Positions 35,361-59,971 of a stretch of DNA of 64,000 nucleotides are shown here, one piece after another. A program made the position numbers and the translations under genes. The notes below the pieces were generated by a model, which saw only the letters and a program-made list of their open reading frames with translations, had not been told where the DNA came from and did not search any database. Positions within the stretch are counted from its first letter, which is position 1, and every line of letters starts with the position of its first letter. Source of the DNA: Eledone cirrhosa (lineage: Eukaryota); contig OZ024755.1 in the NCBI GenBank assembly GCA_964016885.1, forward strand, positions 7,006,001 through 7,070,000, read 5' to 3'.

Positions 35361-38137
35361 TCAACCCTCGTCATGTTTATGTACCTTTTCTTCTTCTCTG
35401 TGAGCTCCGTAATGTGTACGAAGTGGAGCAGTATTTCCAATTAAATCTAGGTCACTGCGCATGTCATCAGATTCATGTTCGTGTACAGGTGAGACATGTT
35501 TTCGGGCCTCTTCCACTGTAATTACACCCACACCTTCTTCGGAAGATTTACCCAATTTCTTGTTTTTTATCACGCCTGATTCAGTGTGATCATTATCTTC
35601 CTCTGCTGTGTCAATATTCAGGAGAGGATTGAAATACTTCACTTTCATGTTATGAATTGTTTTATAAATAGAATATAAATATCCACTGATCCTGCTTTCT
35701 TCCACTTCCTTTACGTTTTCTTCTAATTCTTTCCTTTTTCCATTTTTTACTTTGATTTTTCTCTTTGAAAATCTTGCTCCAGTAGATGCCTTATTTTTGG
35801 TTAAACTTTCTTGTAAAGAATCAATGTCAGGACCTAGAACACTTCCAGGCTGTGAAAGGGTTTTTTTATTTTTGTTATTTTCATGATCGTGTTTAGAACT
35901 GGGGCTTCCATCTCCGTGTACCAGAAGACCATGCATTAACTCGTCGGCATCTCTAGGGAGGGTTGGTTCGTCTGATTTATGAAGCTTCTTGAATTTCTTC
36001 TCATCTTCATGGACATGACTTTCCCCAGGCTTAGCATCATTATGCATGAGAACTCCGTGAAGATAATCGTAGTCCATATGATTGCTGGCAGTTTTTTCTA
36101 TTTTATTCTTTTTACCAGTATTTTCGTCTTCATTGGAATGACTGTGGTGGTTTTTACCAGGTTCTGTGTCGCCGTGCATCATTACACCGTGTAAATAGTC
36201 TTCATAGTCTTGAACACCAATTTTACCTTTAAATTTAGGATGTACAGGAACTTTTGCATTGTCCTCAGTGTGATGTTCAATGCCAGGTTGGTCATCCCCG
36301 TGCATAAAGATCCCATGAAAATAATCAAGTATACTTTGGGGACCAAATGTGGCAGCATTTTTATTGTCATTGATCTTTGCTGAGTCCCCATGATCGTGAC
36401 TGTGGTCCTTTCCTGGGGTTTTATCTCCATGCATCATAACACCGTGCATTTGTTGTTCTATGTCCAAGGGCCCTGCTTTTGTGTCTGTGGATCTAACTTT
36501 CCCAGGGTCACCATGATCGTGAGTGTGGTCCTTACCTGGAGCCTCATCACCATGCATCATAACGCCATGCATTTGTTGTTCTATGTCCAAGGGCCCTGCT
36601 TTTGTGTCTGTAGATCTAGCTTTCTCAGGGTCACCATGATCGTGACTGTGGTCCCTTACCTGGAGCCTTATCACCATGCATCATAACGCCATGCATTTGT
36701 TGTTCTATGTCCAAGGGCCCTGCTTTTGTGTCTGTAGATCTAGCTTTCCCAGGGTCACCATGATCGTGACTGTGGTCCTTACCTGGAGCCTTATCACCAT
36801 GCATCATAACGCCATGCATTTGTTGTTCTATGTCCAAGGGCCCTGCTTTTGTGTCTGTAGATCTAGCTTTCCCAGGGTCACCATGATCGTGACTGTGGTC
36901 CTTACCTGGAGCCTTATCACCATGCATCATAACGCCATGCATTTGTTGTTCTATGTCCAAGGGCCCTGCTTTTGTGTCTGTAGATCTAACTTTCCCAGGG
37001 TCACCATGATCGTGACTGTGGTCCTTACCTGGAGCCTTATCACCATGCATCATAACGCCATGCATTTGTTGTTCTATGTCCAAGGGCCCTGCTTTTGTGT
37101 CTGTAGATCTAGCTTTCCCAGGTCACCATGATCGTGACTGTGTGTCCTTACCTGGAGCCTTATCACCATGCATCATAACGCCATGCATTTGTTGTTCTAT
37201 GTCCAAGGGCCCTGTTTTTGTGTCTGTGGATCTAGCTTTCCCAGGGTCTCATGAACGTGACTATGTTCCTTTCCTTGCTCTTTATCCCCATGCATCATAA
37301 CACCATGCATTTGTTCACTAACATCAAGAGGCCCTGCTTTTGTATCTGAGGGTACCACTTTGCCCAGGGTCCCCATGATCGTGGCTGTGTTCCTTTCCTT
37401 GCTCTTTATCCCCATGCATCATAACACCTTGCATTTGTTCACTAACATCAAGAGGCCCTGCTTTTGTATCTGAGGGTACCACTTTGCCAGGGTCCCCATG
37501 ATCGTGGCTGTGTTCCTTTCCTTGCTCTTTATCCCCATGCATCATAACACCATGCATTTGTTCACTAACATCAAGAGGCCCTGCTTTTGTATCTGAGGGT
37601 ACCACTTTCCCAGGGTCCCCATGATCGTGGCTGTGTTCCTTTCCTTGCTCTTTATCCCATGCATCATAACACCATGCATTTGTTCACTAACATCAAGAGG
37701 CCCTGCTTTTGTATCTGAGGGTACCACTTTCCCAGGGTCCCCATGATCGTGGCTGTGTTCCTTTCCTTGCTCTTTATCCCCATGCATCAAAACACCATGC
37801 ATTTGTTCACTAACATCAAGAGGCCCTGCTTTTGTATCTGAGGGTACCACTTTGCCAGGGTCCCCATGATCGTGGCTGTGTTCCTTTCCTTGCTCTTTAT
37901 CCCCATGCATCATAACACCATGCATGCTATCAGCAACAGTTTTGGGTCCGTTGAGAATATTTCCAGCCATACCGTCACCATCGCCACCGTCGCCGCCACC
38001 ACCAGCGCCGTCTGGCGGAACATTAGCCTGTACATCCGGGACATTTTGATCGATGACCATTTCCTTGACCAGTTCCTGTTGACCACCATCAACTACAGCC
38101 GGACTGTCTTCGTATTTCAGTTCTGTTGTATTGGTAT
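35361..38137 (-). CDS. Large terminal exon of the His/Met-rich repeat protein (about 925 aa; about six 1-bp indels within the repeat array)
   Basis: The acceptor ctctctattacag|ATACC (phase 1, g|at = Asp) opens a complex non-microsatellite ORF. The ORF track shows it as pieces 37542-38501, 37324-37605, 37197-37415, 36631-37083 and 35361-36677. The first and last pieces share a frame, so the indels sum to zero. It ends KVHKHDEG-TGA. Confidence 0.85.
36380..37925 (-). repeat. Coding tandem repeat, 123 bp / 41 aa, about 13 units of two subtypes
   Basis: Type A is HGVMMHGDKEQGKEHSHDHGDPGKVVPSDTKAGPLDVSEQM (about 6 units, 5' side). Type B is HGVMMHGDKAPGKDHSHDHGDPGKARSTDTKAGPLDIEQQM (about 7 units). 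The motif gcatcataac recurs every ~123 bp. Confidence 0.95.
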
Positions 38138-38221
38138 CTGTAATAGAGAGAGTAGAGGGCACAGTTAACATTACACTATAGGGGTAAGTGTAAGGGTAAG
38201 GGTAAGATGAATGGAGGAGAG

Positions 38222-38421
38222 NNNNNNNNNNNNNNNNNNNNNNNNNNNNNNNNNNNNNNNNNNNNNNNNNNNNNNNNNNNNNNNNNNNNNNNNNNNNNNN
38301 NNNNNNNNNNNNNNNNNNNNNNNNNNNNNNNNNNNNNNNNNNNNNNNNNNNNNNNNNNNNNNNNNNNNNNNNNNNNNNNNNNNNNNNNNNNNNNNNNNNN
38401 NNNNNNNNNNNNNNNNNNNNN
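38222..38421. other. Assembly gap (200 N)
   Basis: Run of N bases. Confidence 1.
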
Positions 38422-38504
38422 ATAGATAAAGAAATATATAGAGAGAGAGGGAGAGAGAACGAAATAGATAGAGAATGAGATGGAGGGGGGGGATATATCA
38501 AAAC

Positions 38505-39238
38505 ATATCTAGTTTATCAAGTTTATTAATATTACCAATCGTTAATTTAGTTAAAATGTTTCAAGAGGAATGTCCAATACAGACGTGTTTATGAATTATT
38601 AATAAATACATTCTCAACATAGAAAGATATGAACAGAATTAATTTATGGATATTAATAAGACTGCTGTTAATTAGGTGGCGTATGATGAAACACATTATA
38701 TATATATATAACACATTATATATATATATAACACATTATATATATATATAACACATTATATTTATATATATGAAACACATTATATATATATATAACACAT
38801 TATATATATATATGAAACACATTATATATATATAACCAAAGAATTATATATATATATATATATTCAAAACAACGAACAGCGGAGGACACGTTTCGCACCT
38901 TTCCGACAGACAACCTTTCCCCCACCCCGGAAAAAAAACCCAGTTGATGGATGTGAATCTGAAATATATAGGGACAATTAAATCTCTCCCAAGGTAACTC
39001 TCTCTCGTGTTGTTATTTTTATTTTGATCCTTTACGCTCTTTCCTTCATTCCTCTACACGTCTTATACACGCCACGTATCTCAACGTACACCCCACTTAC
39101 ATCTCTCTCTCCACCACCGGATCTTGTTACCCGGAGATTTACCCATTTGCATTGTCGAGGCTTCCAAACGACTTAAAGAAATTTACCTTATTATTCCACA
39201 ATGCTTCAAGCAAACTTCAATACTCTCATATACATATA

Positions 39239-39297
<59 letters not shown>

Positions 39298-39654
39298 ATA
39301 TTTTCGCTCTACATGGCTGAATACAATAAACGTAATCTGAGTTTTTCGAATATTAATAATAACATTCGATTCGTTTGCAATTATGCAAACAAGCCTCAAT
39401 TTTATAGCCATGTCAGTAGAATGAACCCTTCATTCTTGCTCTTATGTTGGCATGTAAACAGAACTGCAGACACCAATGTTTCTGAGTATCACCCTTCATC
39501 AGTACAGCTCACTGTTCACCTGCCAAACTGTCAGAGCTAGTGAAAATATATGCTATTTTCAAAATTGAGGCTTGCAAACGAATCGAATGTTATTATTAAT
39601 ATTTTAAAAACTCAGATTACATTTATTGTATTCAGCCATGTAAAGCGAAAATTT

Positions 39655-39704
<50 letters not shown>

Positions 39705-39998
39705 CTTTGGTTATATATATATATAATGTGTTTCATCATACGCCACCTAATTAATAGCAGTCTTATTAATATCCATAAATTAATTCTGTTCATATCTTTC
39801 TATGTATCATCGTTTATCTATGCTTCTGTTATTACCAATCGTTAATTTAGTTAAAATTAAAATGTTTCAAGCGGAATGTTCAATACAGACGTATTTCTAT
39901 GAAGTATTAATAAATACATTCTCAACATAGAAAGATATGAACAGAATTAATTTATGGATGTTAATAAGTCTGCTGTTAATTAGGTGGTGTATGATGAA
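38505..39998. repeat. Nested inverted and direct duplications
   Basis: 38617-38850 is the inverse of 39700-39805. 38505-38690 repeats directly at 39815-39998, with a diverged copy at 45120-45290. An inner inverted repeat (39292-39403 and 39561-39660) encloses the GUC hammerhead. Confidence 0.8.
39461..39510 (-). ncRNA. Type-I hammerhead ribozyme with canonical GUC cleavage site
   Basis: gagctgta CTGATGA agggtgatactca GAAA ca ttgg t GTC tgcagttc. Stem I is 8 bp, stem II 4 bp and stem III 3 bp. Confidence 0.85.
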
Positions 39999-40252
39999 GG
40001 ACTTCTGGTGTCAAGATTTGGCTCCGGTCTTGATGGGGTGGAACACAAGATAACATTGATGTTAAGTTTATATTTTACAGCAATAATAATGGTTTCTGGT
40101 ATAGGCACAAGGCCAACAATTGTTGTTGTTGTGGTGGGTGGTGATGGTGTTGGCACAAGACCAGCAATAATCCCAGTGTATTACTGGTACTTTATTTTAT
40201 CGACTCCGTAAGGATGAAAGGTAAAGTTAACCTCGGTGGAATTTGAACTCAA

Positions 40253-40630
40253 GAAAGAGTTGTCTGTCCACAATTAAATGCAGCCAACATATATATTATG
40301 GTAACGAAAGAGTTATGGCTGTCCACAATTAAATATAATCAACATATATATTATGTAACGAAAGAGTTCTCTCTATACTGGAACTGCTATACTTCCATAA
40401 GAAATATGGTAACGAAAGAGTTCTGTCTATACTTCCATTAGTAATATGGTAACGAAAGAGTTCAGGCTATGCTTCCATAAGAATATGGTAACGAAAGAGT
40501 TCAGGCTATACTTCCATTTGTAATATGGTAACGAAAGAGTTCAGGCTATGCTTCCATAAGTAATATGGTAACGAAAGAGTTCTGTCTATACTTCCATAAG
40601 TAATATGGTAACGAAAGAGTTCTGTCTACA
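40253..40630 (-). repeat. Minisatellite (55-bp and 40-bp units) fused to the 3' half of a SINE
   Basis: The core atatggtaacgaaagagtt recurs about 8 times; same family as 56187-56730. Confidence 0.9.
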
Positions 40631-40787
40631 CAAAAGTTACCATAACTGAACCTATCAACACAATAAGTACCTCTATTAACTAAATATTACTTACAATTCA
40701 GTGACTCACTATATTTAGCGACTGATGCTTGCCTAGTCTGGTAGACACGTGAACTAACTTCCACAAGCATCATTTCAATGTGTGAGC

Positions 40788-40822
<35 letters not shown>

Positions 40823-41139
40823 TGTTTGTTTGCATGTGTGCTGTGTGTGTTGTGTGCGGAGGAGGTATGTTGTGTGTGTTTAACGTGTGTTGACTATTTA
40901 TACGCATTTAATACTGCCGCGTGTAACTGCATGTGAGTGTATATATATCATATACTCACGTTATATCTATTGAATGCTCATTCAGTCAATATTGACTGTT
41001 TTATATATACACACACACACACACACACGTGTGTATATATGTGTGTGTGTGTGTGTGTGTGTGCGTGTGTGCGTGTGTATGTAGGTATACATATATATAT
41101 ATACATATATATAAATATACATATGTATATATACATACA

Positions 41140-41276
<137 letters not shown>

Positions 41277-41500
41277 ATATATATTTATATATATACATAC
41301 ATATGCATATATGTATGTGTATATATGTATATATATATATATATATATTATATACATGTAAGTATGCATGTATACGTACATACATATCTGTATACAGACG
41401 TACAGTAGCATGCACATATACATATATATATATATATATATACACATCTATATACACATATATATACACATATATATACACATATATATACACATATATA

Positions 41501-42251
41501 TGCCTTAACACCGTATGGCATAAATTCAGGCTGTTCAGTTTGTTTACAAACGAACAAAGCGACGTTAGCGCCGCTAAACTGATACGTGCATATATGTATG
41601 TGTACCTGTATGCATATGTATATATATGTGTATATATATATATATATATATGTATATGTGCATGCTACTGTACGTCTGTATACATATATGTATGTACGTA
41701 TACATGCATACTTACATTTAAGTAAGTGCCATACTAAGAGTGAGAAATGAAATTTCGTTTTCATTTTGTTTCAATTTATCGTTTTCGGTATGCCTAACCG
41801 ATTTAACTCACTCAATATGCAAATTAGGCTGCTCAGCCGTTAATTTTCATAAGGAAAGTATATACTTTCGAACGTTCAACTATCTGGCAGATGGGTAAAC
41901 GGTGCTGATGATAGCTAACAAGCTTGAAACTAGTACAATCGTTCCTGTGTCAGTGTTGAACAAAAAGGTGACGTGGTTGCCTTAACACCGTATGGCATAA
42001 ATTCAGGCTGTTCAGTTTGTTTACAAACGAACAAAGCGACGTTAGCGCCGCTAAAACTGATACGTGCATATATGTATGTGTACCTGTATGCATATGTATA
42101 TATATGTGTATATATATATATATATATATGTATATGTGCATGCTACTGTACGTCTGTATACATATATGTATGTACGTATACATGCATACTTACATTTAAG
42201 TAAGTGCCATACTAAGAGTGAGAAATGAAATTTCGTTTTCATTTTGTTTCA

Positions 42252-42258
<7 letters not shown>
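41501..42258 (+). mobile_element. Partial tandem duplication (about 280 bp, period about 478 bp) with a hammerhead just upstream of the second copy
   Basis: 41501-41778 is nearly identical to 41978-42256. The pair is flanked by TA-rich microsatellite and the hammerhead lies at 41898-41943. Confidence 0.75.
41898..41943 (+). ncRNA. Minimal type-I hammerhead ribozyme
   Basis: aacggtg CTGATGA tagctaacaagctt GAAA ctag TA caatcgtt. Stem III is the palindrome ctag and the cleavage triplet is GUA. Confidence 0.8.
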
Positions 42259-42296
<38 letters not shown>

Positions 42297-42536
42297 GCTA
42301 CTTAAAGTTTCAGGCCCAGCAATGACCATATTATCAGTTTGTAAGAGTGATCAACAATTGTGACCTGATCTTCAGGATCTTAGACGAGTTCTGACTATTT
42401 CAATGTATTTACACTGGTGTATATAACTGCATGTTCCGTGTATGAAGATAAATATATAATGTTATATAACAGCTCTCATTCCTGATTGCGCAGCTTTCCT
42501 TTTTCACACCTACGGTTATTTTCTTTATATATTTAT

Positions 42537-42586
<50 letters not shown>

Positions 42587-42587
42587 T

Positions 42588-42640
<53 letters not shown>

Positions 42641-42641
42641 A

Positions 42642-42905
42642 GGTTAAAAGATGAAATCGAAAATGCAACTGGACTCTTTTTAAAAAATATTTATTTGGTT
42701 CCTTTACCGGTTTCGCAGTTCTTCTACTTTTCAAAAGTAGAATAAGATGGAGGGTTTGTGGTTTTTCTCACATCTGAAAAACCACAAACCCTCCATCTTA
42801 TTCTACTTTTGAAAAGCACAAGAACTGCGAAACCGGTAAAGGAACCAAATAAATATTTTAAAAAAAAACTCCAGTTGCATTTTCGTTTTCATCTTTTTTC
42901 CTTAT
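42642..42905. repeat. (TA)n-flanked palindrome, arms about 125 bp (family Z)
   Basis: The arms are reverse-complementary around tcacatct. A solo arm lies at 47349-47478. It contains gcGAAAccggTA, resembling the 3' half of a hammerhead. Confidence 0.85.
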
Positions 42906-42954
42906 ACTTTCACTCGTGTAGGACATCACTTTTTTTATTTTGTAAAAAAAACTC

Positions 42955-43026
<72 letters not shown>

Positions 43027-43029
43027 GTT

Positions 43030-43087
<58 letters not shown>

Positions 43088-44031
43088 AAGAGGATAGATA
43101 GATACACATACATACATACATACATACATACATACATACATACATACATACATACATACATGCATACATACATACATACATACATGCATACATACATACA
43201 TACATACATACATACATACATACATGCATACATGCATACATACATGCATACATACATCTAGATGTGAGAGTTTTTATAAAGATTTGATTTGTGCTAAATA
43301 CTCTCTAAGTATTTTCCCTCAGTTGCTAAAAGACGCTTTATATTCAAAATGGAGGACACTGATCTAACAAGAGACCCTCTGTCAATTCTCAAACTATGAG
43401 AGAATGATGTGATTTAGTCTCCTAACACAACATACCAACCCTACCTCTGGCAAATATTGCCATGCATCGACAAACCCCGTAGCAGTTAGGGTGTTGATGG
43501 CACGATTGCAGTGTTCGTTTTCGAATCCTGGCTTCGTTTTGCTAGACCAGACATCATGTTGTGTTCTTGGTCAAAACAAGCGGCGTAACTCTGGTATGGC
43601 AAGCATGGCACTTGCCATGGGCACAACATGAAGGGGGCGCCACTTGGACTAGGAGCGCGTTCTATTAAAGTCAAGTAAGCCTCGTTGGAGAGTGAAAAAA
43701 GAAACCCCTTCAGATGTATGATCTGTCTCTGATTATCATGGATGAGAACACTATGGTGGCTGGATCATTAAACCATTTATATAAATTATTAGGTAATAAT
43801 ACAGTGCTGTGTAGGGGTGCAATTTCACTGCTTACCATAGATGCTATTTTTCCTGGTCAACTCGGTTAAAACTGAATACCAACTACAACTTGAGTAGTGG
43901 ACATAGGGGTGTTAAACTTACGATGGAATGGTGTCCTGTGATGTACTCCCAGTCGCTTTAATGCCACGAAACGGGTATATGCTCCGGCTTGGTCAGCCTT
44001 CGGGCTTTGGATAGGTTTTAACGTTAAACAT

Positions 44032-44064
<33 letters not shown>

Positions 44065-44506
44065 GTCATCGTCATCATCATCCTCATTGTTTAACGTCTA
44101 ACTTCCTTGCTTGCATAGGTTGGACGGGCTGTCACATTATGAGACAAGTCAGCTCAAGTATGTTTGGGGTTTGGTTTCTATAGCAGGATACCCTTCCTAA
44201 CGCCAACCACGTTACAGTGTGGACTGTGTGGTTGCAGTGTTCATGCCTTTCCCGAGAGAACAGTAATGTACTTGTTAGTGAAAGAAATTTCGAAACATTC
44301 CCAAAGCAAACTCGTCTTGTCGTTAGGTCACCTATATCTTGATTTATGACGAGTGTTCATAAGTGGGGAACGTGACTAAAACACACACACAGATAATATA
44401 AGGAAATACACACACACACATACACACACATACATACATACATACATACATGCATACATACATACATACATACATACATACATACATACATACATACATA
44501 CATACA

Positions 44507-44537
<31 letters not shown>

Positions 44538-44541
44538 GTAT

Positions 44542-44607
<66 letters not shown>

Positions 44608-44608
44608 G

Positions 44609-44679
44609 CAGGGTGTCCCTAAAGATGTATAGACACTTCAGCATTCTAATAAATATGTGTAAACATCTTTGGGGACACC

Positions 44680-44682
<3 letters not shown>
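44609..44682. mobile_element. Tc1/mariner-type MITE, 74 bp
   Basis: Terminal inverted repeats CAGGGTGTCCC...GGGACACCCTG followed by TA. Relatives lie at 30239-30330, 46707-46768 and 48637-48730. Confidence 0.8.
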
Positions 44683-44716
<34 letters not shown>

Positions 44717-44819
44717 GTCCTGTCCAGGGGGGAATCTTGTACTCTCAGTAGCTTCACGCCATGAAACCGGGATAAGCACCGGCCAAATGAGCCTTCAGGC
44801 TTAAGACAGACTTTAGACT

Positions 44820-45060
<241 letters not shown>

Positions 45061-45544
45061 GTATATATATGTGTATATATATGTATATACTGTATATATA
45101 TGTATGTAAGTATGTATGATCGTTTATCTAAGCTTCTGTTATTATCACTCGTTAATTTAGTTAAAATGTTATGAGAGGACTACAGTCGTGTTTCTATTAA
45201 GTGAGAACAAATGCATTCTCAACATAGCAAGATATGAATTCTATTAATTTGTTGGTTACTAATAACACTGCTGGTAATTAGGTTATGTATGTAGGGTTAG
45301 TGCTCTATTAACCTGGGGGCGTCGTTAATAAACTGAATACGTTAGCGTTAATTTACGTCACCGAAGATCTCATCAACTATAACTGAATAAATCATCTGAT
45401 ATATAAGTATAACGGTATATCTTGTATCAAGGATCGTCAAAGATTTTAAACCAGATCTTCTCAAAGTGGGTGCTGCCTCCGGTGGGGCATTGAGAAGGTC
45501 CAAGGGTTGCTGGAGCCTAAGGGGGCAGTGGGGTGATAGAGATG

Positions 45545-45594
<50 letters not shown>

Positions 45595-45597
<3 letters not shown>

Positions 45598-46130
45598 ATA
45601 ATAATAAATTTGAAGACTAAAATCCAAAGAGGGCTCGATAAGGATAAATATATATCAAATATATAAGAACCCTAGAGCAAATATTTATTAAAATAACAGA
45701 TTAAAGTTTAAGCAAAGAATTGCTGCTTTCACCCTTAACGGGATTTTCTGAAACTAAAAAATCAATCTGTGAACGCAGAAGTAAATATTTCGAAAAACGT
45801 TGTAACCGAAGGAAAACAGGAAGACGATACTTTGACGGACCCAGCATATTTATCAATGCCAGGACAGGTTGTATCTCAGCGTACTCAATAGGTAATGTAG
45901 AATACATTCCCAGAGTATACACATAGTTATTCGCTTCAATACAACACACGTAAACGGGTGCCTATAATAGTTCCCGGACTCGAGTTTAAGTACAGTAAAG
46001 TGATTAGCAACTGGAATCTGATACAACTCTGTCCCCCGATCGGCCACCGATTTACAAATTTACGTGGTGGCGGGAGATTAGAAAACAAATATTTTCGCTC
46101 CCGTCAAAAGCATTCAGCCAACGTGTCTCA
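45595..46130 (-). mobile_element. Degraded Penelope-like element 3' end (family Y)
   Basis: The minus-strand peptides PVANHFT and LSTL...PGID weakly resemble a Penelope GIY-YIG C-terminus. They are followed by a hammerhead-like cagaaaa-tcccgttaagggt-GAAA and by (TA)n. Related copies lie at 47790-47960, 49790-50018 and 18360-18420. Confidence 0.45.
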
Positions 46131-46328
46131 AACACATATTAATAAGATAGTGAAAGTAAGATGGAGAAGTAGAGGGAGAAGGGGGAGAGAAAGAGGATAG
46201 CAGCAAGGGAAGAGAAAAAAGACAGGTATCAGCAGACTGGAAACTGTTAAATGTTTGGCCGCCCTCTCGTCTCTCGGCCTTTTCAGCCCCATGGATTGTG
46301 TCTATAATATTCCTTTGTTAAATTTCGA

Positions 46329-46388
46329 ATACCTGATGATATCACCGGATTCATACTGAACCCGATCATTGTGAAATGTTCATAGTAT
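46329..46388 (+). ncRNA. Type-I hammerhead ribozyme motif
   Basis: atac CTGATGA tatcaccggattcatactgaacccgatcattgt GAAA tgttca TA gtat. Confidence 0.7.
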
Positions 46389-46575: not shown

Positions 46576-46690
<115 letters not shown>

Positions 46691-46809
46691 TTTATATACA
46701 TATATACAGGGTGTTCCCCAAAGTATGTATACACATTTCAACTGCATTCTAATCAAAGTATGTATACATACATATATATATATATATGTATATATATAAT
46801 TTCATTATC

Positions 46810-48744: not shown

Positions 48745-48975
48745 AGTCTAAAGTCAGAATGCTCATTTGGCCGGTGCTTATCCCGGTTTAGGGGCGTGAA
48801 GCGACTGAGAGTAAAAGACTCTCCCTTGGACAGGACGCCAGTACATCGCAGGGTTAAAACCCCCAGCTATTGCTGGTACTAATTTTCAGTTGAGTGTACT
48901 GGGGCAAGCAACGTGAAATGAAGTGTTTTGCTCAAGAACACAACACGGAACCCAGGAATCGAACCCACGACATTA
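48745..48975 (-). mobile_element. SINE family 2
   Basis: Uninterrupted version of 17730-18200. Related heads or cores lie at 3805-3930, 4760-4935, 33040-33370, 49505-49620, 57770-57965 and 62310-62560. Confidence 0.8.
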
Positions 48976-49735
48976 TGTATGTATGTATGTATATTGTTAT
49001 GTATATCTTTACAACATCTTACAGTGAGAAATAAAGTTTTTCTACGACGAAAATAAATAACTGCGATCTTTTTGATAACTGAGGTGATGATGCGATGTTT
49101 GCTGAGAAATTAGTTGTTTCTGGATTCCTATAGAAAGGCAGGATTCTCCGACAAACTATTGATGATCATAAATTCAAAAATTATCTTGTCAATGTCTGCA
49201 GAATTATCACCCAAAATTAACAAAGCACTAAATTCTTTAGTAATGAATAGAACGTTATCGTTTCGCAAACATCGTAAAGCCATATAATGTATTTCCAGTT
49301 AACCAAGTTAACTACGTACTTATTAATTGGAGGGTCGTAAATCTTAGCACATCTCTCTTGCTCTGCTAGATCGTTAAGATCCTAGACCTCATTCGCATGC
49401 CGAATGAATGGGGTGGACATCGTCAAATTGGACCAAGGAAACAATGTTTTCATTGGTCTTTCCATTATTGATACTATCTACCGGTCGCAACTCCTGGAAG
49501 AAGGAGCAATGTCAAATAAAGTGTCTTGCTCAAGGAGACCCAACGCATCACCCGGGCCGAGAATTGAACTCGCAACCTCTCGATTGCGAATTCAACTCTC
49601 TAATCACTAAGCCACATGCCTTCTCATAATTTGTACCAAATGTAACACTTCAGCAGTATATAGACTTATGTATACACATTCAGCTGTATGTAGAATCGCA
49701 TATACACATTCAGTTGCATATACACCCCCCCCCCC

Positions 49736-49781
<46 letters not shown>

Positions 49782-49789
49782 GTATATAG

Positions 49790-50015
49790 TAATAATAATA
49801 AATTTGAAGACTAAAATCCAAAGAGGGCTCGATAAGGATAAATATATATCAAATATATAAGAACCGTAGAGCAAATATTTATTAAAATAACAGATTAAAG
49901 TTTAAGCAAAGAATCGCTGCTTTCACCCTTAACGGGATCTTCTGAAACTCAGAAGATCCCGTTAAGGGTGAAAGCAGCGATTCTTTGCTTAAACTTTAAT
50001 CTGTTATTTTAATAA

Positions 50016-50018
<3 letters not shown>
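49790..50018. repeat. Family Y fold-back with a ~70-bp perfect stem
   Basis: 49875-49944 is the reverse complement of 49949-50018, with (TA)n on both sides. Confidence 0.9.
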
Positions 50019-50107
<89 letters not shown>

Positions 50108-50138
50108 GAATATATATATATATATACAGAGAGAGAGA

Positions 50139-50206
<68 letters not shown>

Positions 50207-50502
50207 CTCCCATATACATTCAGCTATATATACACTCCCATATACACATTAAGACGAGGAAGAGAGTGTAGCATATGGTGGTGGTCGTGGTGGGAGTGTA
50301 TTCACGTTTTGAAACAGACATTACCAAATACAACAGCTTTAACACGTGTTTGACATGCAAGTCTATCCTGAATCTCTGCTGATCTCCAAAAGTAAAGAAA
50401 ATAAAAGGAAAAAATTGATTGGCACCCACAGAAATATGTTAATCAGTTTATTAGAGATAATAATTATAATAATTAAGATATATCTACAGATATTAAGTCA
50501 TT

Positions 50503-50692
50503 GTGGACTGGCTAGGTTGACAGGTTGCCATGTGGCAAGTGGGTCCCCGGGGGACCCACCGTAATATTTCAGATCCAATGTTTTGCGTTAAAAAAAATAT
50601 CTGAGGTCTAAGATGTAGAACACAAATTTTAAAAAAAACAAAATAAATAATACAATTTTACCATCGGGCAACCTGGCAACCTAGCCAACACG
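50503..50692. mobile_element. MITE-like element with ~35-bp imperfect terminal inverted repeats
   Basis: tggctaggttgacaggttgcc pairs with ggcaacctggcaacctagcca. Confidence 0.55.
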
Positions 50693-50721
50693 TAATTATG
50701 TATATATATATATATATATGT

Positions 50722-50786
<65 letters not shown>

Positions 50787-50799
50787 TATATATATACTT

Positions 50800-50858
<59 letters not shown>

Positions 50859-51017
50859 CATATATATGCATATACATACATACATATATATACATACATA
50901 CATATATATGCATATATATACATACATACATATATACACATACAAACATGCATACATATATATATACATATACATACATACATACATATACATATACATA
51001 CATATACATACATATAC

Positions 51018-51051
<34 letters not shown>

Positions 51052-51152
51052 ACATATACATACATATATATATATATATACATATACATACATGCATACA
51101 TACATACATATACATACATACATATGCATACATACATATGCATACATACATA

Positions 51153-51241
<89 letters not shown>

Positions 51242-51242
51242 T

Positions 51243-52000
51243 TTAGTCAAATTTTATTTCTTAGGAAAAACAGGAATTCTGGTCGTCGCAACCGACGGAG
51301 TACCACTGCTCTCTTTTATATATATATAACGTGTATGTATGTGTGTGTGAGTTAAGTAATTATATTTATATACAGAGAGAGAGAGATACATATAAATATA
51401 TAAAAACTTCCCATGCTGAAACTTTTTTGCACCCATTTTTGCGATTAAGTAAAAACGGAGTTATCGTTCTTGAGATTTCGGCTTGGAGAAATTTAAGGAA
51501 CTGATGTCGCTAAATCGTCAAATCATGTACCTGCCCCGTTGCATCATGGGAGGGGTAATGGCTGAATTTTATTTTTTTAACGACCGTGATTTTTTTAAAT
51601 TCTTTCTCGCCAACTTGTTTTAATTATTTACTTATATAAAGCGAGAAACAAGTTGGCGAGAAAAAAATCAAAAAAAAATCTACCGTCGTTAAAAAAATAA
51701 AATTCAGCCATTACCCCTCCCATGATGCAACGGGGCAGGTAAATGATTTGACGATTTAGCGACATCAGTTCCTTAAATTTCTCCAAGTCGAAATCTCAAG
51801 AACGATAACTCCGTTTTTACTTAATCGCAAAAATGGGTGCAAAAAAGTTTCAGCAGGGGAAGTTTTTATATATTTATATGTATCTCTAACTCACACACAC
51901 ATACATACACATTATATATATATAAAAGAGAGCAGTGGTACTCCGTCGGTTGCGACGACCAGAATTCCTGTTTTTCCTAAGAAATAAAATTTGACTAATA
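51243..52000. repeat. Long inverted repeat (arms about 350-380 bp, few mismatches) between (TA)n tracts
   Basis: 51243-51620 is the reverse complement of 51645-52000. Confidence 0.9.
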
Positions 52001-52009
52001 TATATATAT

Positions 52010-55000
52010 GGTGGTGGTGGTGGTGGTGGTGGTGGTGTGTGTAGTGGTGGTGGTGGTGGTGATGTGGTTGGTTGTGACGGAGTGGGGGTGATGGGGGGTT
52101 GGGGGTTATTTGGGGGGGTAGTGGTGGTGGTGTGTGTGTAGTGGTAGTGTGGTAGTGGTGGTGGTGGTTGGGGTGGTAGTGGTGGTGGTGGTGGTTGAAG
52201 TGGTAGTGGTGGTGGTGGTCGTTGGGGTGGTGGTGTTGGTGGAGGTGGTTGAGGTGGTAGTAGTGGTGGTGGTGGTTTGGGTGGTAGTGGTGGTGATGGT
52301 TGGGGTGGTAGTGGTGGTGGTGGTCGTTGGGGTGGTGGTGGTGGTGGTGGTGGTTGGGGGGAGGGCTTGCTCTACCTTATCTGGTGATCACGTGGCTTGC
52401 TTTCATTCTGTCCGGTGGTGGTGGTGGTGGTGGTGGTGGTGGTGGTGGTGGTGGTAGTGGTGGTGGTAGTAGTGGTGGTGATGGTGTTGGTGGTGGTGGT
52501 GATGGTGTTGGTGGTGGTGGTGGTGTTGGTGGTGGTGGTGGTGGTGGTGGTGGTGGTGGTGGTGATGGTGTTGGTGGTGGTGGTGGTGGTGGTGGTGGTG
52601 GTGATGGTGTTGGTGGTGGTGGTGGTGTTGGTGGTGGTGGTGGTGGTGGTGGTGGTGTTGGTGGTGGTGGTGGTGTTGGTGGTGGTGGTGGTGGTGGTGG
52701 TGGTGTTGGTGGTGGTGGTGGTGGTGGTGGTGATGGTGGTGGTGGTAGTGGTGGTGGTAGTGGTGGTGGTGATGGTGTTGGTGGTGGTGGTGATGTTGGT
52801 GGTGGTGGTGGTGGTGGTGGTGGTGGTGGTGGTGGTGTTGGTGGTGGTGGTAGTGGTGGTGGTGATGGTGATGGTGGTGGTGGTGGTGGTAGTGGTGGTG
52901 GTAATAGTGGTGGTGATGGTGTTGGTGGTGGTGGTGGTGGTGGTGGTGTTGGTGGTGGTGGTGGTGGTAGTAGTGGTGGTGATGGTGTTGGTGGTGGTGG
53001 TGGTAGTAGTAGTGGTGGTGCTGGTGGTAGTAGTAGTGGTGGTAGTAGTAGTGGTGGTGGTGGTGTGGTAATGGTGGTGGTGGAGTGGTGGTAGTAGTGG
53101 TGGTGGTGGTGGTAGTAGTGGTGATGGTAGTAGTAGTGTTGGTGGTGGGGGTGTGGATGGGCGTCGGGTGGGGGTGGGGTGGTGGTAGTAGTGGTGGTGG
53201 TGGTAGTAGTAGTGGTGGTGGTGGTGGTGGTGGTGGTGGTGTAGTAATGGTGGTGGTGGTGGTGGTGGTGGTAGTGGTGGTGGTAGTAGTGGTGGTGATG
53301 GTGTTGGTGGTGGTGGTGGTGGTGGTGGTGGTGGTGGTGGTGGTGGTGGTGGTGGTGGTGATGGTGTTGGTGGTGGTGGTGGTGTTGGTGGTGGTGGTGG
53401 TGGTGGTGTTGTTGGTGGTGGTGGTGGTGGTGGTGGTGGTGATGGTGTTGGTGGTGGTGGTGGTGGTAGTGGTGGTGGTAGTAGTGGTGGTGATGGTGTT
53501 GGTGGTGGTGGTGGTGGTGGTGGTGGTGATGGTGTTGGTGGTGGTGGTGGTGTTGGTGGTGGTGGTGGTGGTGGTAGTAGTGGTGGTGATGGTGTTGGTG
53601 GTGGTGGTGGTGGTGTTGGTGGTGGTGGTGGTGGTGGTGGTGGTGGTGATGGTGATGGTGGTGGTGGTGGTGGTGGTAGTAGTGATGGTGGTGGAGTGGT
53701 GGTAGTAGTGGTGGTGGTGGTGGTAGTAGTGTTGGTGGTGAAGTGGTGCTGGTGGTGGTGGTGGTGGTGGTGGTGGTGGTGGTGGTGGTGGTGGTGGTGG
53801 TGGTGGTGGCGGTGGTGGTGGTAGTGGTGGCGGTAGTGGTGGTGGTGGTGTAGTAATGGTGGTGGTGGTGGAGGTTGTAGTAGTGGTGGTGGTGGTGGGG
53901 GTGGGGGTGGTAGTGGGGGTGGGGGTGGTAGTGGTAGTGGTGATGGTGGAGTGGTGGTAGTAGTAGTGGTGGTGGTGGCGGTGGTGCTGGAGGTTGCAGT
54001 AGTGGTGGAGGTGGTAGTGGTGGTGGTGGTGGTGGTGGTGGTGGTGGTGGTGGTGGTGGTGGTAGTAGTACTGGTGGTTCTGGTGGTGGTGGTGGTGGTG
54101 GTAGTAGTGGTGGTGGTGGTGGTGGTGGTGGTGGTGGTGGTGGTGGTAGTGGTAGTAGTGGTGGTGGTGGTGGTGGTGGTGGTAGTGGTGATGGTGGACT
54201 GGGGGTAGTATCTGTGGTGGTGGCGGTGGTGGAGGTTGTAGTAGTGGTGGTGGTGGTGGTAGTAGTGGTGGTGGTGGTGGTGGTGGTGGTGGTGGTGGAG
54301 GTGGTGTAGTGGTGGTGGTGGTGGTGCTGGTGGTGGTGGTGGTGGTGGTGGCGGTGGTGGTGGTAGTAGTGGTGGTGGTAGTGGTATTAGTGGTGGTGTT
54401 GGTGGTGGTGGTAGTAGTGGTGGTGGTGGTGGTGGTGGAGGTGGTAGTGGTGGTGGTGGTGGTGGTGGTGGTGGTGGTGGTGGTGGTAATGGTGGTGGTA
54501 TTAGTGGTGGTGTTGGTGGTGGTGGTGGTGGTGGTGGTGGTGGTGGTAGTGGCGGTGGTGGTGGTGGTGGTAGTAGTGATGGTGGTGGAGTGGTGGTAGT
54601 AGTGGTGGTGGTGGTGGTATTAGTGTTGGTGGTGAAGTGGTGGTAGTAGTGGTGGTGGTGGTTGTGGTGGTGGTAGTGGTGGTGGTGGTGGTGGTGGTGG
54701 TGGTGGTGGTGGTGGTGGTGGTGGTGGTGGTGGTGGTGGTGGTAGTGGTGGTGGTGGTGGTTGTGGTGGTGGTAGTGGTGGTGGTGGTGGTGGTGGTGGT
54801 GGTGGTGGTGGTGGTGGTGGTGGTGGTAGTGGTGGTGGTGGTGGTGGTGGTGGTGGTGGTGGTGGTGGTGGTGGTGGTGGTGGTGGTGGTGGTAGTGGTG
54901 GTGGTGGTGGTTGTGGTGGTGGTAGTGGTGGTGGTGGTGGTGGTGGTGGTGGTGGTGGTGGTGGTGGTGGTGGTGGTGGTGGTAGTGGTGGTGGTGGTGG

Positions 55001-55715
55001 TGGTGGTGGTAGTGGTGGTGTTGGAGGTGGTAGTAGTGGTGGTGGTGCTGCTGGTGGTGGAGGTTGTAGTAGTGGTGGTGGTGGTAGTAGGGGTGGTGCT
55101 GGTGGTGGTGCTGGTGGTGGAGGTGGTAGTAGTGGTGGTGGTGGTAGTAGTGGTGGTGGTAGTGGTGGAGGTGGTAGTAGTGGTGGTGCTGGTGGTAGAG
55201 GTAGTAGTAGTGGTGGTGGTGGTAGTAGTAGTGGTGGTGGTGGTGGAGGTGGTAGTAGTGGTGATGGTGGTGCTGGCGGTGGAGGTGGTAGTAGTGGTGG
55301 TGGTGGTAGTAGTGGTGGTGGTGGTAGTAGTGGTGGTGGTGGTGGTGGAGGTGGTAGTAGTGGTGGTGGTGATGGAGGTGGTAGTAGTGGTGGTGGTGGT
55401 GCTGCTGGAGGTGAAGGTGGTAGTAGTGGTGGTGGTAGTATTAGTGGTGGTGGAGGTGGTAGTAGTGGTGGTGCTGGTGGTGGAGGTGTTATAGTGGTGG
55501 TGGTGGTAGTAGTGGTGGTGTTGGTGGTGGAGGTTGTGGTATTGGTGGTGTTGATGGTGGAGGTGGTGGTAGTAGTGGTGGTGGTGGTGGTGGTAGTGGA
55601 GATGGTTTGGGAGATGGTGTTGGTGGTGGTGGTGGCAGCGGTGATGGTCATGGTATTGATGGTAATGTTAGTAGTGGTAGTGGTGATGGTGATGGTGATA
55701 GTATGGTGGTGGTTG
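52010..55715. repeat. Imperfect (GGT)n microsatellite, about 3.7 kb
   Basis: Direct inspection; it gives rise to the poly-V, poly-G and poly-P pseudo-ORFs. Confidence 0.98.
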
Positions 55716-55763
55716 AGAAAAAGTGAGAGAGTGAGAGCGTGTGTGTGTGTGTGTGTGTGCGTG

Positions 55764-55842
<79 letters not shown>

Positions 55843-55982
55843 TATGGACGAAGAAAGACGATAGAAAGAAAAAAAGGACACATTTTCCACAAATTATTTT
55901 TCCAAGAAAGAAAATACGAAACCTTTAAAAAGGGATTCAAAATAAGTTAATAATAATAATCATAATAATAATAATAATAATA

Positions 55983-56015
<33 letters not shown>

Positions 56016-56186
56016 ACTAGTATATAGATATTGTATTTACTAAACCGTACATCCGTTGAAATAGTTCCAACTCTTTAACTAGGCGAAAATATCTTGGATT
56101 GTGAAGATAAAGCAACTCAAGAAACACTTTGGTAGAGCGTCAGACACCATGCTTTGCAGCATAGAGTTACGGCCCTTTACGGTCTG

Positions 56187-56730
56187 GAAGTATAGCTGTT
56201 CCAATATAGACATAACTCTTTCGTTACCATATTATATATGTTGTCTGAATTTAATTCTGGACAGACATAACTCTTTCGTTACCATATTATATATGTTGTC
56301 TGAATTTAATTCTGGACAGACATAACCCTTTCGTTACCATATATATATGTTGTCTGAATTTAATTGTGGACAGACATAACCCTTTCGTTACCATATTATA
56401 TATGTTGTCTGAATTTAATTCTGGACAGACATAACTCTTTCGTTACCATATATATATGTTGTCTGAATTTAATTCTGGACAGACATAACCCTTTCGTTAC
56501 CATATTATATATGTTGTCTGAATTTAATTCTGGACAGACATAACTCTTTCGTTACCATATTATATATGTTGTCTGAATTTAATTCTGGACAGACATAACC
56601 CTTTCGTTACCATATATATATGTTGTATGAATTTAATTCTGGACAGACATAACCCTTTCGTTACCATATTATATATGTTGTCTGAATTTAATTGTGGACA
56701 GACATAACTCTTTCGTTACCATATTATATA
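56187..56730 (+). repeat. 55-56-bp minisatellite, about 9.5 copies, fused to the 5' half of a SINE
   Basis: Unit gacagacataactctttcgttaccatattatatatgttgtctgaatttaattctg. Confidence 0.95.
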
Positions 56731-56767
56731 TACATACATACACACATACACACACACATACATACAT

Positions 56768-56970
56768 ACAAAAGTATGACTGAACTTGGATTTGCGGACA
56801 AAAAGCGCTCCCTAATTCATAGTCTGCAAATGGCTGCGATAGCTGGCACCTTCAAAATTTGCAAAACATTCTTGCGATTCAAGGGATGACAATTTCTTTT
56901 CTTTTACAACCTTGCCACCAGGAAGGTGGCCGGTCAAAAGAATATACTCGAAATTAAGAGAAAGAGAAAA
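56768..56970 (+). mobile_element. 3' tip of an R2/R4/NeSL-type (RLE) retrotransposon within (CATA)n
   Basis: KSMTELGF...SLQMAAIAGTFKICKTFLRFKG-stop resembles the C-terminal LQxAAxxGTxKIxxxxL helix of RLE elements. A short 3' UTR follows and CA/CATA repeats flank both sides. Confidence 0.55.
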
Positions 56971-57195
56971 CATACATACATACATACACACATACATACA
57001 TACATACATACATATATACATACATACATACACACATACACACACACACATACATACATACATATATACATACATACACACACACATACACACACACATA
57101 CATACATACATACATACATACATACATACATACACACATACACACATACACACACACATACATACACACACACATACACACATACATACATACAT

Positions 57196-57240
<45 letters not shown>

Positions 57241-58999
57241 TACATCTGTGGTTTTATGTTAATATATACTATAGTCAATAGGTATAACAGACGTGACAAA
57301 CAAGCTAATATAGAGGTACACATGGTCTCTTACAAACTTTCACATGTATACGTTGTAATCGATTGTCTCTGTTATCGATCTGACCAGTCTGTAGAAGGTA
57401 GGAGGAGGGGGTATACTAAGCTGATCATCTGTCCGATATATAACTGAAGATGTGTGACATTGATCTAACTCGTTTGTAGTTAGGTGGGTGGCTGGATAGG
57501 TGGGGGTATGCAAAGATTATGGAAGTTAGTTATTGAAGTCTCCATTTCATGCTGCAAAAACTAGTGATAGACCTGTGACCTGCCCTGTGAGGCGTGGGAT
57601 GGACACACAGTTTGCATATCCTAAGACCCCAAAGAGGGTCCGGGAGGGAGCAAACCTTGATACTTTCCTTTCTTGAAAAAAAAAAAAAAAATTAAAAAAA
57701 CGAAAAAATAGTTATTACCATATCCACCCCTATTGATCCAAGAACCTAAATCAGTTTTGATCCCTTGTTTGAACTGAAGACCATACACCCTTTATGTAGT
57801 TTTCATAGAGATTCAACGTGATACAGTGTATGACAAGGCTGGCCCCTTGAATTGCAGGTACATCTTTTTTTTTTTTTGCCACCTGAGCGGACTGAAGAAA
57901 TGTGAAATAAAATGTCTTGCCCAAGAACACAATGCACTGCCGGGAATTGAACTCACAATCTAAACACAGCAGACTTTTTCCAGAGAAGGATAAAGAAAGT
58001 GAGAGAATGGAAGAGAGAAAGAGATATAGAGGAAGAGTCGACCCCAGCACTAAACTGGTACTTTTTTTTATCGACCTTGAATGGATTAAAGGCAAAATTA
58101 ACCTCGACGAGATTTGAACTCAGAGATCAGAGAGCTGGAACTGACACTGCAAAGTACTCTCTCCAATATTTTAACAACTCTGCCAATTCGCCGCCTTGCA
58201 TTAATGCCACAAACAAGCAAAATATCCTTTAACTTACGAACCAAAGAAATTCTACAGAGAGATATAATTGAAAATGTATATTTTGTATATTTTCATAAAT
58301 AAACTAATCTAACTATACCTAACCTACTCTAACCTTCCAGAATGGTAGATTAGGTAAAATCGGATTTGTTTATTTACAAAGGTAGAGAAAATATTTAATT
58401 TGCAAATACATTTCTCTATACCTGGTGTAAATATAACTGACATTTCAATATATCATAGGCCAAATGTATCACTGCAGAGCAGCGAAAAGTATTTTTTTAA
58501 TAATAAAAAATTGTTTTGATAAAAAGTCTTATCAGTTGCCATTCAATGAATTCTCGAGTTATAGTAATAGTAATAGTAAATGTAATTAATAGTTAAGTCG
58601 GTTCCAGCCCGAGTTAGAACAGCAAGGCACCTTTTCTACATTTCTATGTCTATGCCATCTTTAGTTCTTGGATAAATTCCAGGCCAGTATCCAAGAACTA
58701 AAGATGGCATAGACATAGAAATGTATCCTTTAGGTCCTTAATGTATGTGAGAGGACGTCCACCACATTTCCTTGCCCATCACTGGTTTGTTTAGAGAGCT
58801 TTCAGTCTCGGAAATATCGGTATGGACGCATGAAATCGGACAATTTTCGATGTCCAATTGATGTATATTTTAATCGAACACAGAAGACTATAAATAAACA
58901 CAGTGTCCGGAATCAGACATATCTGTCAAACTTTTTCTTAGGTATTATCCTTCATCGTTTCACATGGAGAAATAACATGTTAACTTCATACAAAAAATA

Positions 59000-59410
59000 T
59001 AGACAGAGGCAGGTAAAAAAATCCAAGAATGCAACTGAGGAATTACAAAATATAGATAGAGTTAGGTAAAAAGGTAAGAATATAACAAATTAGCTACTAT
59101 ATATAGTCAGAGGCAGATAAAAAGTTAAGAATGTGACTAATTAGCTACTATATATAGTCAAAGGCAGGTAAAAGGGTTAGAATATAAGTGAGTAGCTACA
59201 GAGACAGGTAAATAGCCAAGAATATATCTGAGGAGTTACAGAGGCAGGTAAAAAGGTTAGAATATATCTAAGGGGCTACAGAGGCAGATAAACAGCCAAG
59301 AATATAACTAAGGAGTTACAGAGGCAGGTAAACAGGTTAGAATATATCTAAGGAGCTACAGAGGTAGGTAAACAGCCAAGAATATATCTAAGGGACTACA
59401 GAAACATAAG
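59000..59410. repeat. Diverged ~40-bp minisatellite
   Basis: Unit approximately agaggcaggtaaaaaggttagaatatatctaaggagctac. Confidence 0.85.
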
Positions 59411-59892
59411 TAAAAGGCGAGTATATAAATGACATAAAGATACGTGTTTGCTAACCTTCGTAAAATAACGATTTCTAACTGAGGCACAAGGCCATCAATT
59501 TAAAGAAGGATGTATGGGGGGAGTTGATTACACCGATCACAATACTAAATTGGTACTTTATTTAATCACCCCTCGAATGATGAAATGTAAAGTTAACCTC
59601 GGTAGGATTTGAAATCTGAACATAAAATGCCAGAACGATTTTGTCAATCCATTGCCTTAAACCTTTGTGAAATAATACTATGGTTGTAGGGGATGTGTTT
59701 TGTTTTATTTAATGAGGGTGCTGTCAGATATTTGTTGGTCCCTCATCGTCTCTCCGGATCCCGGGTCCAGGACTGGTATACCCCCACCACCTCTTACAGG
59801 ACCCTGTCACTCACCACGTCTTACGGGACCCTATCACTCACCAGTTCTTACATGAACCTAAACATACATAACCAATACAAAGAATAACATAC

Positions 59893-59971
59893 CTGTTTGT
59901 GTTGGTTTAGCATGAAGCTGTGTGTGCCATAGAAAGGTAAGTAAGACCAGGTAGTAGTAATAAGTATTCAT
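59893..59971 (-). CDS. First coding exon (signal peptide) of a secreted His/Met-rich repeat protein
   Basis: The minus strand reads ATG AAT ACT TAT TAC TAC TAC CTG GTC TTA CTT ACC TTT CTA TGG CAC ACA CAG CTT CAT GCT AAA CCA ACA CAA ACA G|gtatgt = MNTYYYYLVLLTFLWHTQLHA-KPTQT. It has a hydrophobic core, an L-H-A cleavage-like site and a strong phase-1 donor matching the phase-1 acceptor at 38137. A possible upstream acceptor (tttacag) lies at 60009-60010. Confidence 0.7.

Follow-up and report, generated by a model that had tools for sequence, protein, structure and literature searches.

A His/Met-rich repeat protein of Eledone cirrhosa and its spiralian relatives: a candidate metal-binding family of the secretory pathway

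We analysed a 64,000-nucleotide stretch of contig OZ024755.1 of the octopod Eledone cirrhosa (assembly GCA_964016885.1, positions 7,006,001 to 7,070,000; the window), in which an earlier note, made from the DNA letters alone, had proposed a gene for an unrecognised secreted His/Met-rich metal-binding protein. That proposal remains the best reading of the sequence evidence, and it is now backed by conservation of the repeated motif across four phyla. The gene is a real, transcribed two-exon gene, and its product belongs to a family that has no domain model and for which no description was found in the literature searched. We consider it about an even prospect that the members of this family act as many-site metal sponges, probably for Cu(I), either extracellularly or within the secretory pathway.

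Results

A repeated motif with a near-invariant Met

The repeat units of the family follow the consensus Gly-Pro-x-Asp-x-x-x-x-[Leu/Met]-His(0)-Gly-Val-Leu-Met(+4)-His(+5)-Gly-Asp-x-x-x-Gly-x-x-His(+14), and the near-invariant columns of the alignment consist almost wholly of the His, Met, Gly, Asp, and Pro of the motif. Motifs were counted with position +4 left free: His(0), Gly(+1), His(+5), and hydrophobic residues at +2/+3 were required, and 38 of 296 HG...H strings were set aside for want of the hydrophobic pair, leaving 258 distinct instances. Position +4 was Met in 256 of these. At +3 the residue was Leu in 225, Met in 30, and another in 3; at -1 it was Leu in 143, Met in 89, Phe in 19, and another in 7. 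His(+14) was found in 232 instances and Asp(+7) in 246. The simplest reading of a Met that is never traded for Leu, and that lies one helical turn from an invariant His, is that Met(+4) serves as a sulfur ligand for a soft metal, and its non-replacement by Leu would favour soft Cu(I). His/Met sites favour Cu(I) and Ag(I) in oxidising compartments.

AlphaFold2 models of the window protein (pLDDT 59, pTM 0.22) and of a clam member (pLDDT 64.5, pTM 0.26) showed no global fold; in both, each motif is modelled as a short, isolated helix and the linkers are of low confidence. A short, conserved, repeated motif behind a signal-like start and a short first exon would also suit a neuropeptide or peptide-hormone precursor from which the repeats are cut out as bioactive peptides. 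This reading was rejected and appears extremely improbable, as the position profile revealed no conserved basic cleavage sites and no Gly-Lys-Arg in the motif flanks, and the conserved letters span ~25 positions per unit.

Distribution and features of the family

The closest proteins to the window protein are from Octopus bimaculoides (62% identity over 94% of a 422-residue C-terminal query) and Argonauta hians (58%). Single-sequence searches returned 27 and 28 proteins. The earlier note had pointed to molluscs as the place to look for relatives, and a profile built from 37 sequences retrieved 71 proteins. An organism name accompanies 24 of the 71 entries, all of them spiralian (molluscs, annelids, nemerteans, and a flatworm), and the other 47 carry none. 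The named members come from two octopods, bivalves of many orders, a chiton, Owenia, Dimorphilus, Tubulanus, Lineus, and Macrostomum; no gastropod or squid is among these 24, which do not prove absence outside Spiralia. From this distribution, the family seems to date back at least to the divergence of molluscs, annelids, nemerteans, and flatworms.

Family proteins are 200-950 aa long. Behind a signal-like start they carry between 1 and 10 motifs, with a median of 6 across 78 proteins, and they share a helix block as well as a terminal box. The relatives, which include O. bimaculoides A0A0L8G269, Argonauta GAB1606629.1, Crassostrea gigas LOC105341149, Owenia CAH1798606.1, Tubulanus LOC141911091, and Macrostomum Mlig007456g2, are uncharacterised, and none has a described function. 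They have in common with the window protein the motif, the C-terminal box, and, in complete models, the signal-like start; they differ from it in motif number, since its 17 motifs are the highest count in the family. Both octopod database models lack the N-terminus, and the expansion of the array may therefore be octopod-wide. The two conserved C-terminal elements lie at the following positions.

35631 to 35690, minus strand: conserved C-terminal helix block, consensus S-D-x-I-L-x-D-I-E-L-M-K-x-R-Y-L, diverged in octopods
35424 to 35465, minus strand: conserved C-terminal box, family consensus D-x-R-H-D-L-E-L-x-G-x-T-x-P

Lys-Lys or Arg-Arg occurs in 33 of the 49 C-terminal helix blocks matched, a feature that brings to mind a granin-like packaging protein of dense-core granules, whose acidic, His-rich chain would aid the storage of secreted cargo by condensing with Zn or Ca at the pH of the granule. 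The signal-like start, the ~20% Asp plus Glu of most members, the 5-11% His, the mostly disordered chain, and a cAMP-response element (CRE) octamer ~800 nt upstream of the window gene's start codon would fit such a protein. Granins have several conserved dibasic sites and their sequences drift, whereas the motif studied here is kept letter for letter across four phyla. The family has a single dibasic site, which is missing from 16 of the 49 blocks and from the three octopod sequences, none of 42 members matched a Pfam family, and one CRE in 64 kb is at chance level. Taken together, these observations make a granin-like role rather improbable.

A Cys directly precedes a motif in 62 of 78 members, and 48 of 78 have a two-Cys cap that probably forms a small disulfide. 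In seven relatives (P0009, P0010, P0013, P0015, P0036, P0037, and P0097) a Gly-Pro-Cys-x-Gly-Met-x-Cys cap is present on several or most motifs (7-12 Cys). Most non-octopod members cap the first or several motifs, and the octopod sequences have no such cap. The readable segments of the window gene had been described as free of Cys, and no Cys is encoded in exon 1, in 38138-37662, or in 36629-35364; as a property, "Cys-free" holds for the three octopod sequences and does not extend to the family.

Automatic annotation has given several database entries of the family misleading names (filaggrin-2-like, Na/K/Ca exchanger-like, cation ATPase, transposase-like, and HigA antitoxin, on P0002, P0029, P0038, P0043, and P0116). 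These identities were rejected, as they found no Pfam support in the 42 members scanned. An old oyster model (P0064, K1RKW0) fuses a family gene to three upstream copies of an unrelated secreted protein of ~310 aa and draws those proteins into the family cluster; this fusion may be why earlier lineage-specific screens missed the family.

A transcribed two-exon gene

The window has 36% G+C, abundant simple repeats, and a single 200-N gap. The gene is arranged as follows.

59972 to 60022, minus strand: probable 5' untranslated part of exon 1, placed by the 126-letter length of a contig's loose end (below)
59893 to 59971, minus strand: coding part of exon 1, 79 nt (26 codons plus 1 base), with an AG|GT phase-1 donor
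38138 to 59892, minus strand: intron of 21,755 nt, GT...AG, phase 1, rich in simple repeats, with the 200-N gap at 38222-38421
35361 to 38137, minus strand: coding part of exon 2 to the stop codon, 2777 nt, preceded by an AG acceptor; it encodes the whole mature protein
37923 to 38137, minus strand: acidic, Gly-rich N-terminal spacer, 72 codons in open frame, covered by the spliced contig
35170 to 35175, minus strand: first AATAAA past the stop codon, a candidate polyadenylation signal

Four public sequencing runs (X1-X4), all from one study, were compared with positions 37790-38221. A contig of run X1 (372 nt, depth ~4) follows the window over 37896-38141 and continues with 126 loose letters; the first 30 of these letters match the window solely from 59897 onward, and the four letters in between are common to the end of the intron and the end of exon 1. 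Because the loose letters match from 59897 and the four bridging letters fit both ends, the contig spans the 59893-38137 junction. It joins the two positions exactly as had been proposed from the sequence, and the signal-peptide exon and the phase-matched terminal exon ~21.7 kb away are thereby borne out. The junction is a single observation, one contig of a run of unrecorded kind with no independent replication, and runs X2-X4 read through into the intron at the start of exon 2.

Exon 1 encodes 26 residues, a hydrophobic core or predicted signal peptide followed by Lys-Pro-Thr-Gln-Thr. Among the 46 relatives with a long enough leader, 22 show a hydrophobic stretch and then Lys-Pro/Ala-x or Ala-Pro, as scored by a heuristic pattern and not by SignalP; the same heuristic counts 32 hydrophobic leaders in relatives, some of which are probably intron read-through. 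Oyster models that lack exon 1 part from the full models at the same Asp after Lys-Pro-Thr-Gln, which suggests that oysters have the same intron.

Two differences between runs and assembly were seen near the junction. One base at 38171 is absent from all three intron-covering runs, so the assembly has indel errors close by. A C>A difference at 37984 is carried by the spliced run X1 and by X2, and it is therefore likely to be a DNA allele and not RNA editing. Upstream of the gene, the window contains one perfect CRE octamer (60766-60773), adjoining TATAA; a single copy is not significant, since 0.57 are expected by chance in 64 kb.

Repeat array and reading frame

Exon 2 contains a 123-bp tandem repeat of 12.5 copies with 95% matches, far above chance, followed by older units.

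36318 to 37922, minus strand: tandem array, units 1-13, 123-bp/41-aa period, with two subtypes (units 1-6 and units 7-12) and a hybrid unit 13
35870 to 36317, minus strand: older units 14-17 (lower bound approximate)

An intact array unit has 5 His, 2-3 Met, and one His-x-His-x-His cluster, and the two subtypes are 80% identical in DNA. Of the 13 near-identical 41-aa units first described, 12 are full, near-identical units in two subtypes, and the 13th is a 43-aa hybrid. Likewise, all 17 sites described as HGxxMHGD-type motifs are present, and 14 of them have the strict form: the exceptions are unit 5, which begins with Gln, unit 16, with HND, and unit 17, in which Val replaces Met. Leu-Met is seen in unit 2.

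Four units had been taken for drifted copies of the array unit. Units 14-16 match their positional counterparts in O. bimaculoides and Argonauta at 57-79% and other units of the window at 30-45%, and identity between the amplified units and the first complete unit in these two octopods is 59-71%. By these unit-by-unit identities, the amplification started from a single ancestral unit, and the "diverged" units are of old origin.

The array was amplified recently and has a His-x-His-x-His cluster in every unit, features that could also point to a structural secretion, such as a mucus, cuticle, beak, or adhesive matrix, cross-linked by His-metal bonds of the kind known in mollusc and annelid materials. 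The number of motifs in the family is modest and stable (median 6, range 1-10) despite the very different materials of its bearers, which include shell-less flatworms and nemerteans. In addition, the chain is charged and not rich in Gly, Ala, or Tyr, and the intact units contain no GHGxY repeat. A structural role consequently seems very doubtful to us.

The array cannot be read in one frame as assembled, a point that the earlier note had not recorded. Six one-base indels give in-frame stops; they lie in unit 3 (near 37659), unit 5 (37365), unit 6 (37251), unit 7 (37143 and 37123), and unit 11 (36655). They are net zero (2856 nt, or 952 codons including the stop), all of them sit in single-letter runs or a two-letter repeat within the array, and the flanks are free of them over 72 codons before the array and 422 codons after the last indel. 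The contig pieces listed for unit 1, the only unit covered by this comparison, showed substitution variants and no gap where the indels of units 3 and 5 would map; a further 46 pieces lay outside that listing. Contig depth on unit 1 was ~3-6 times that of the unique flank in X2-X4, which is not a measure of copy number and was not used.

The assembled stops would also be explained if the family is real and this copy is broken, with genuine frameshifts and a product of only ~225 aa, a reading that concerns this species alone and in whose assessment array-spanning reads played no part. The net-zero sum of the indels, their confinement to runs inside the array, the 422 open codons downstream with 62% identity to O. 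bimaculoides, the assembly error at 38171, and the lack of gap variants on unit 1 all speak against a broken copy, which we regard as having a low probability. The six frameshifts are very probably assembly errors, and if so, the protein is 951 aa long.

The C-terminal tail and residence in the ER-Golgi

The window protein ends in a tetrapeptide that resembles the endoplasmic reticulum (ER) retrieval signal HDEL.

35364 to 35375, minus strand: terminal His-Asp-Glu-Gly, HDEL-like with a non-permissive last residue

By pattern, 58 of 79 sequences have the terminal box; these were dereplicated to 42, and 21 sequences were dropped. An H-x-E-x ending was found in 11 of the 42 (8 of them HDE-x), compared with 11 of 803 four-mers elsewhere in the same tails, although the pattern was picked after inspection and kin share tails, so that a nominal p-value means little. 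Six of the 21 dropped sequences also end in H-x-E-x. The ending is tied to the terminus and not to the box, from which it is separated by 11 to 38 residues, and its named carriers belong to four phyla (octopods, Owenia and Dimorphilus, Lineus, and Macrostomum). At the final position these endings have Gly, Ser, Thr, Glu, Gln, His, or Asn and never Leu, and no family member found ends in HDEL. Some other members end in RTEM, KEEI, KQEM, or GDEF.

A reporter screen in human cells found that the final position must hold Leu or Phe, with Met or Ile working less well (PMC2140024), and the KDEL receptor reads a tri-carboxylate at positions -3, -2, and -1 (PMC8248988). The window protein has the His at -4 and the Glu at -2 of KDEL-receptor clients, with Gly at -1. 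From the last-residue rule and tri-carboxylate recognition, efficient ER retention is not expected; weak retrieval, or another reader of the His-Asp-Glu-x terminus, is possible. The protein had been called extracellular, and its signal-like start is in keeping with this, but the conserved HDEL-like tail makes the location less certain.

One could picture a metal buffer or chaperone that is not secreted but resides in the ER-Golgi lumen or cycles through it. Its His-Asp-Glu-x end would be a weak signal to the KDEL receptor, and its repeats would pass Cu or Zn to metalloenzymes in transit; this would change the location and not the chemistry. Beyond the enrichment and fixed position of the ending, its spread over four phyla, and the RTEM-like ends of further members, the coupling of His-cluster metal binding to retrieval has a precedent in ERp44 (PMC6363758). 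Such residence is nevertheless unlikely, given that 31 of the 42 sequences have no H-x-E-x ending, which counts against a retrieval signal as such, that no member ends in HDEL, and that the Gly end of the window protein departs from the Leu/Phe rule.

Searches of databases, structures, and literature

The family had not been recognised by the earlier note, and no Pfam, NCBIfam, or Protein Data Bank (PDB) match was found for it. Pfam gave 0 families for 42 of 42 members at E<=0.01, NCBIfam gave no relevant match for 6 proteins at E<=0.1 (one spurious fructokinase row), and a profile search of the PDB gave 0 sequences. The ESM Atlas returned no usable match for the window protein or for the relative P0004, a result that shows neither absence nor novelty. 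With the low-confidence models as queries, Foldseek gave no match at E<=0.001, and the best match in VIA (Z 4.0, rmsd 7.1, 75 aligned) reflected generic long helices. A two-copy complex prediction for the C-terminal 138 residues, made without an alignment, scored 0.00 in both runs. None of 3406 candidates was a longer relative of 740-2110 aa, which is weak evidence.

No published description of the family was found by gene or accession identifiers, motif words, or topic, in a search whose scope left out most subscription journals and all supplements but that of Wu et al. 2020. Topic results were judged by titles and the openings of abstracts, and the 20 papers listed of 66 that matched motif words were unrelated medical ones; the family may be mentioned in proteome or transcriptome tables. 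None of the 37 spiralian-specific oyster proteins of Wu et al. 2020 (lophotrochin, trochin, and 35 others; PMC7441323) has the motif or the oyster-like start, in a comparison that covered supplementary file 2 entire, with long cells to 400 letters only. Passages of studies of scallop Cd-binding proteins (PMC12357810) and of oyster adhesive (PMC6193008) name other proteins, a comparison that covered names and not the sequences of their uncharacterised entries.

Other features of the window

Two open stretches, 8256-8711 on the minus strand and 27014-27409 on the plus strand, seem to resemble parts of the proteins of non-LTR retrotransposons. At 7764-8164 and 28502-28806 lie two tandem arrays of 60-bp repeats, unrelated to each other, with 95-96% matches and open frames and with no gene context seen.

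Discussion

In the mechanism that we propose, the protein would be a chain of beads on a string, each motif a short predicted helix ending in His-Gly-Asp and the linkers between them disordered. The metal ligands of each unit would be His(0), Met(+4), His(+5), and His(+14), acting within that unit or pooled between units. Metal loading would compact the chain, as it does in SilE/PcoE, and acid pH would release the metal. Amplification of one ancestral 41-aa unit to ~12 copies in the lineage of the window would have raised the metal capacity to ~3 times the family median.

Several points weigh against this metal-sponge reading. The relatives were retrieved by the motif itself, which favours conserved motif letters, although positions +3 and -1 serve as an internal control. 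Two sites in the window protein depart from the ligand set, with Val at +4 in unit 17 and Gln for His(0) in unit 5. Three His and an Asp would also fit Zn(II) or Cu(II), and the Met may be kept for packing or as an oxidant sink. The low-confidence models (from 42 and 65 sequences) leave a fold possible. Metal-response elements are not in excess in the 64-kb window (19 matches against 23 expected). As to the gene itself, splice support comes from the one contig, whose run is of unrecorded kind and from the same study as the other three; contigs lose rare variants, and the comparison reached unit 1 and not the indels of units 6, 7, and 11; and the full-length octopod protein is in no database searched, which is weak evidence.

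The earlier note had raised copper and the use of haemocyanin as a possible context. To our knowledge, oysters, annelids, nemerteans, and flatworms do not have molluscan haemocyanin, and since they have family members, haemocyanin is not the function of the family; speculatively, it could lie behind the octopod amplification. A wider picture would join these elements: a spiralian lumenal Cu(I) store or delivery protein, the His/Met counterpart of metallothionein, cycling through the ER-Golgi on a weak HDEL-like tail and loading cuproenzymes, with its sites about tripled in the octopod lineage of the window for haemocyanin copper. We hold this combination to be distinctly improbable.

If the family binds copper, it would be an animal counterpart of the bacterial His/Met sponges and a direct candidate for holding and moving soft metals where conditions are oxidising and stores based on Cys perform poorly. 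It would then bear on metal accumulation by oysters and on copper supply to cephalopod haemocyanin. The 41-residue unit with its one testable Met offers a cheap check of the chemistry, and knock-down and localisation are within reach because the family has members in Macrostomum and oysters.

Comparison with known systems

Squid beak histidine-rich proteins (HBPs), mussel byssus His domains, the Nereis jaw protein, and metallothioneins form a natural comparison set, as they have His-rich repeats or store metal. The family differs from them in having neither GHGxY or Gly-rich repeats nor Cys clusters, in keeping Met strictly, and in spanning four phyla. The distinction from the GHGxY repeats of squid beak, drawn in the earlier note, stands, with no GHGxY in the unit translations. 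Metallothioneins are small, cytosolic proteins with Cys clusters; the window protein has 0 Cys in its three open stretches, a signal-like start, and no Pfam match.

With KDEL-receptor clients that have HDEL-type tails, for example ERp44, the window protein shares a free C-terminus with His, Asp, and Glu at positions -4, -3, and -2. It differs from them in that family tails never end in Leu and in having no thioredoxin or other known fold.

The closest likeness in design is to bacterial SilE and PcoE. SilE is a secreted, disordered protein with His/Met motifs in which helices form on Ag+ binding, and PcoE binds up to nine Cu+ (PMC5008109). In common with them, the family has an exported, largely disordered chain in which His/Met motifs recur on short predicted helices, with a His-to-Met spacing of i to i+3/i+4 and no need of Cys; for the family, the placing of motifs on short helices in a disordered exported chain is a prediction. 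No sequence relationship was found in NCBIfam or Pfam, and the MxxH/HxxM arrays of the bacterial proteins contrast with His-Gly-x-x-Met-His-Gly-Asp...His here. The family consists of animal proteins of 200-950 aa with a conserved C-terminal block, and metal binding, demonstrated for the bacterial proteins, is only inferred for the spiralian ones. By this analogy, the spiralian family plausibly works like SilE and PcoE without being a member of their family.

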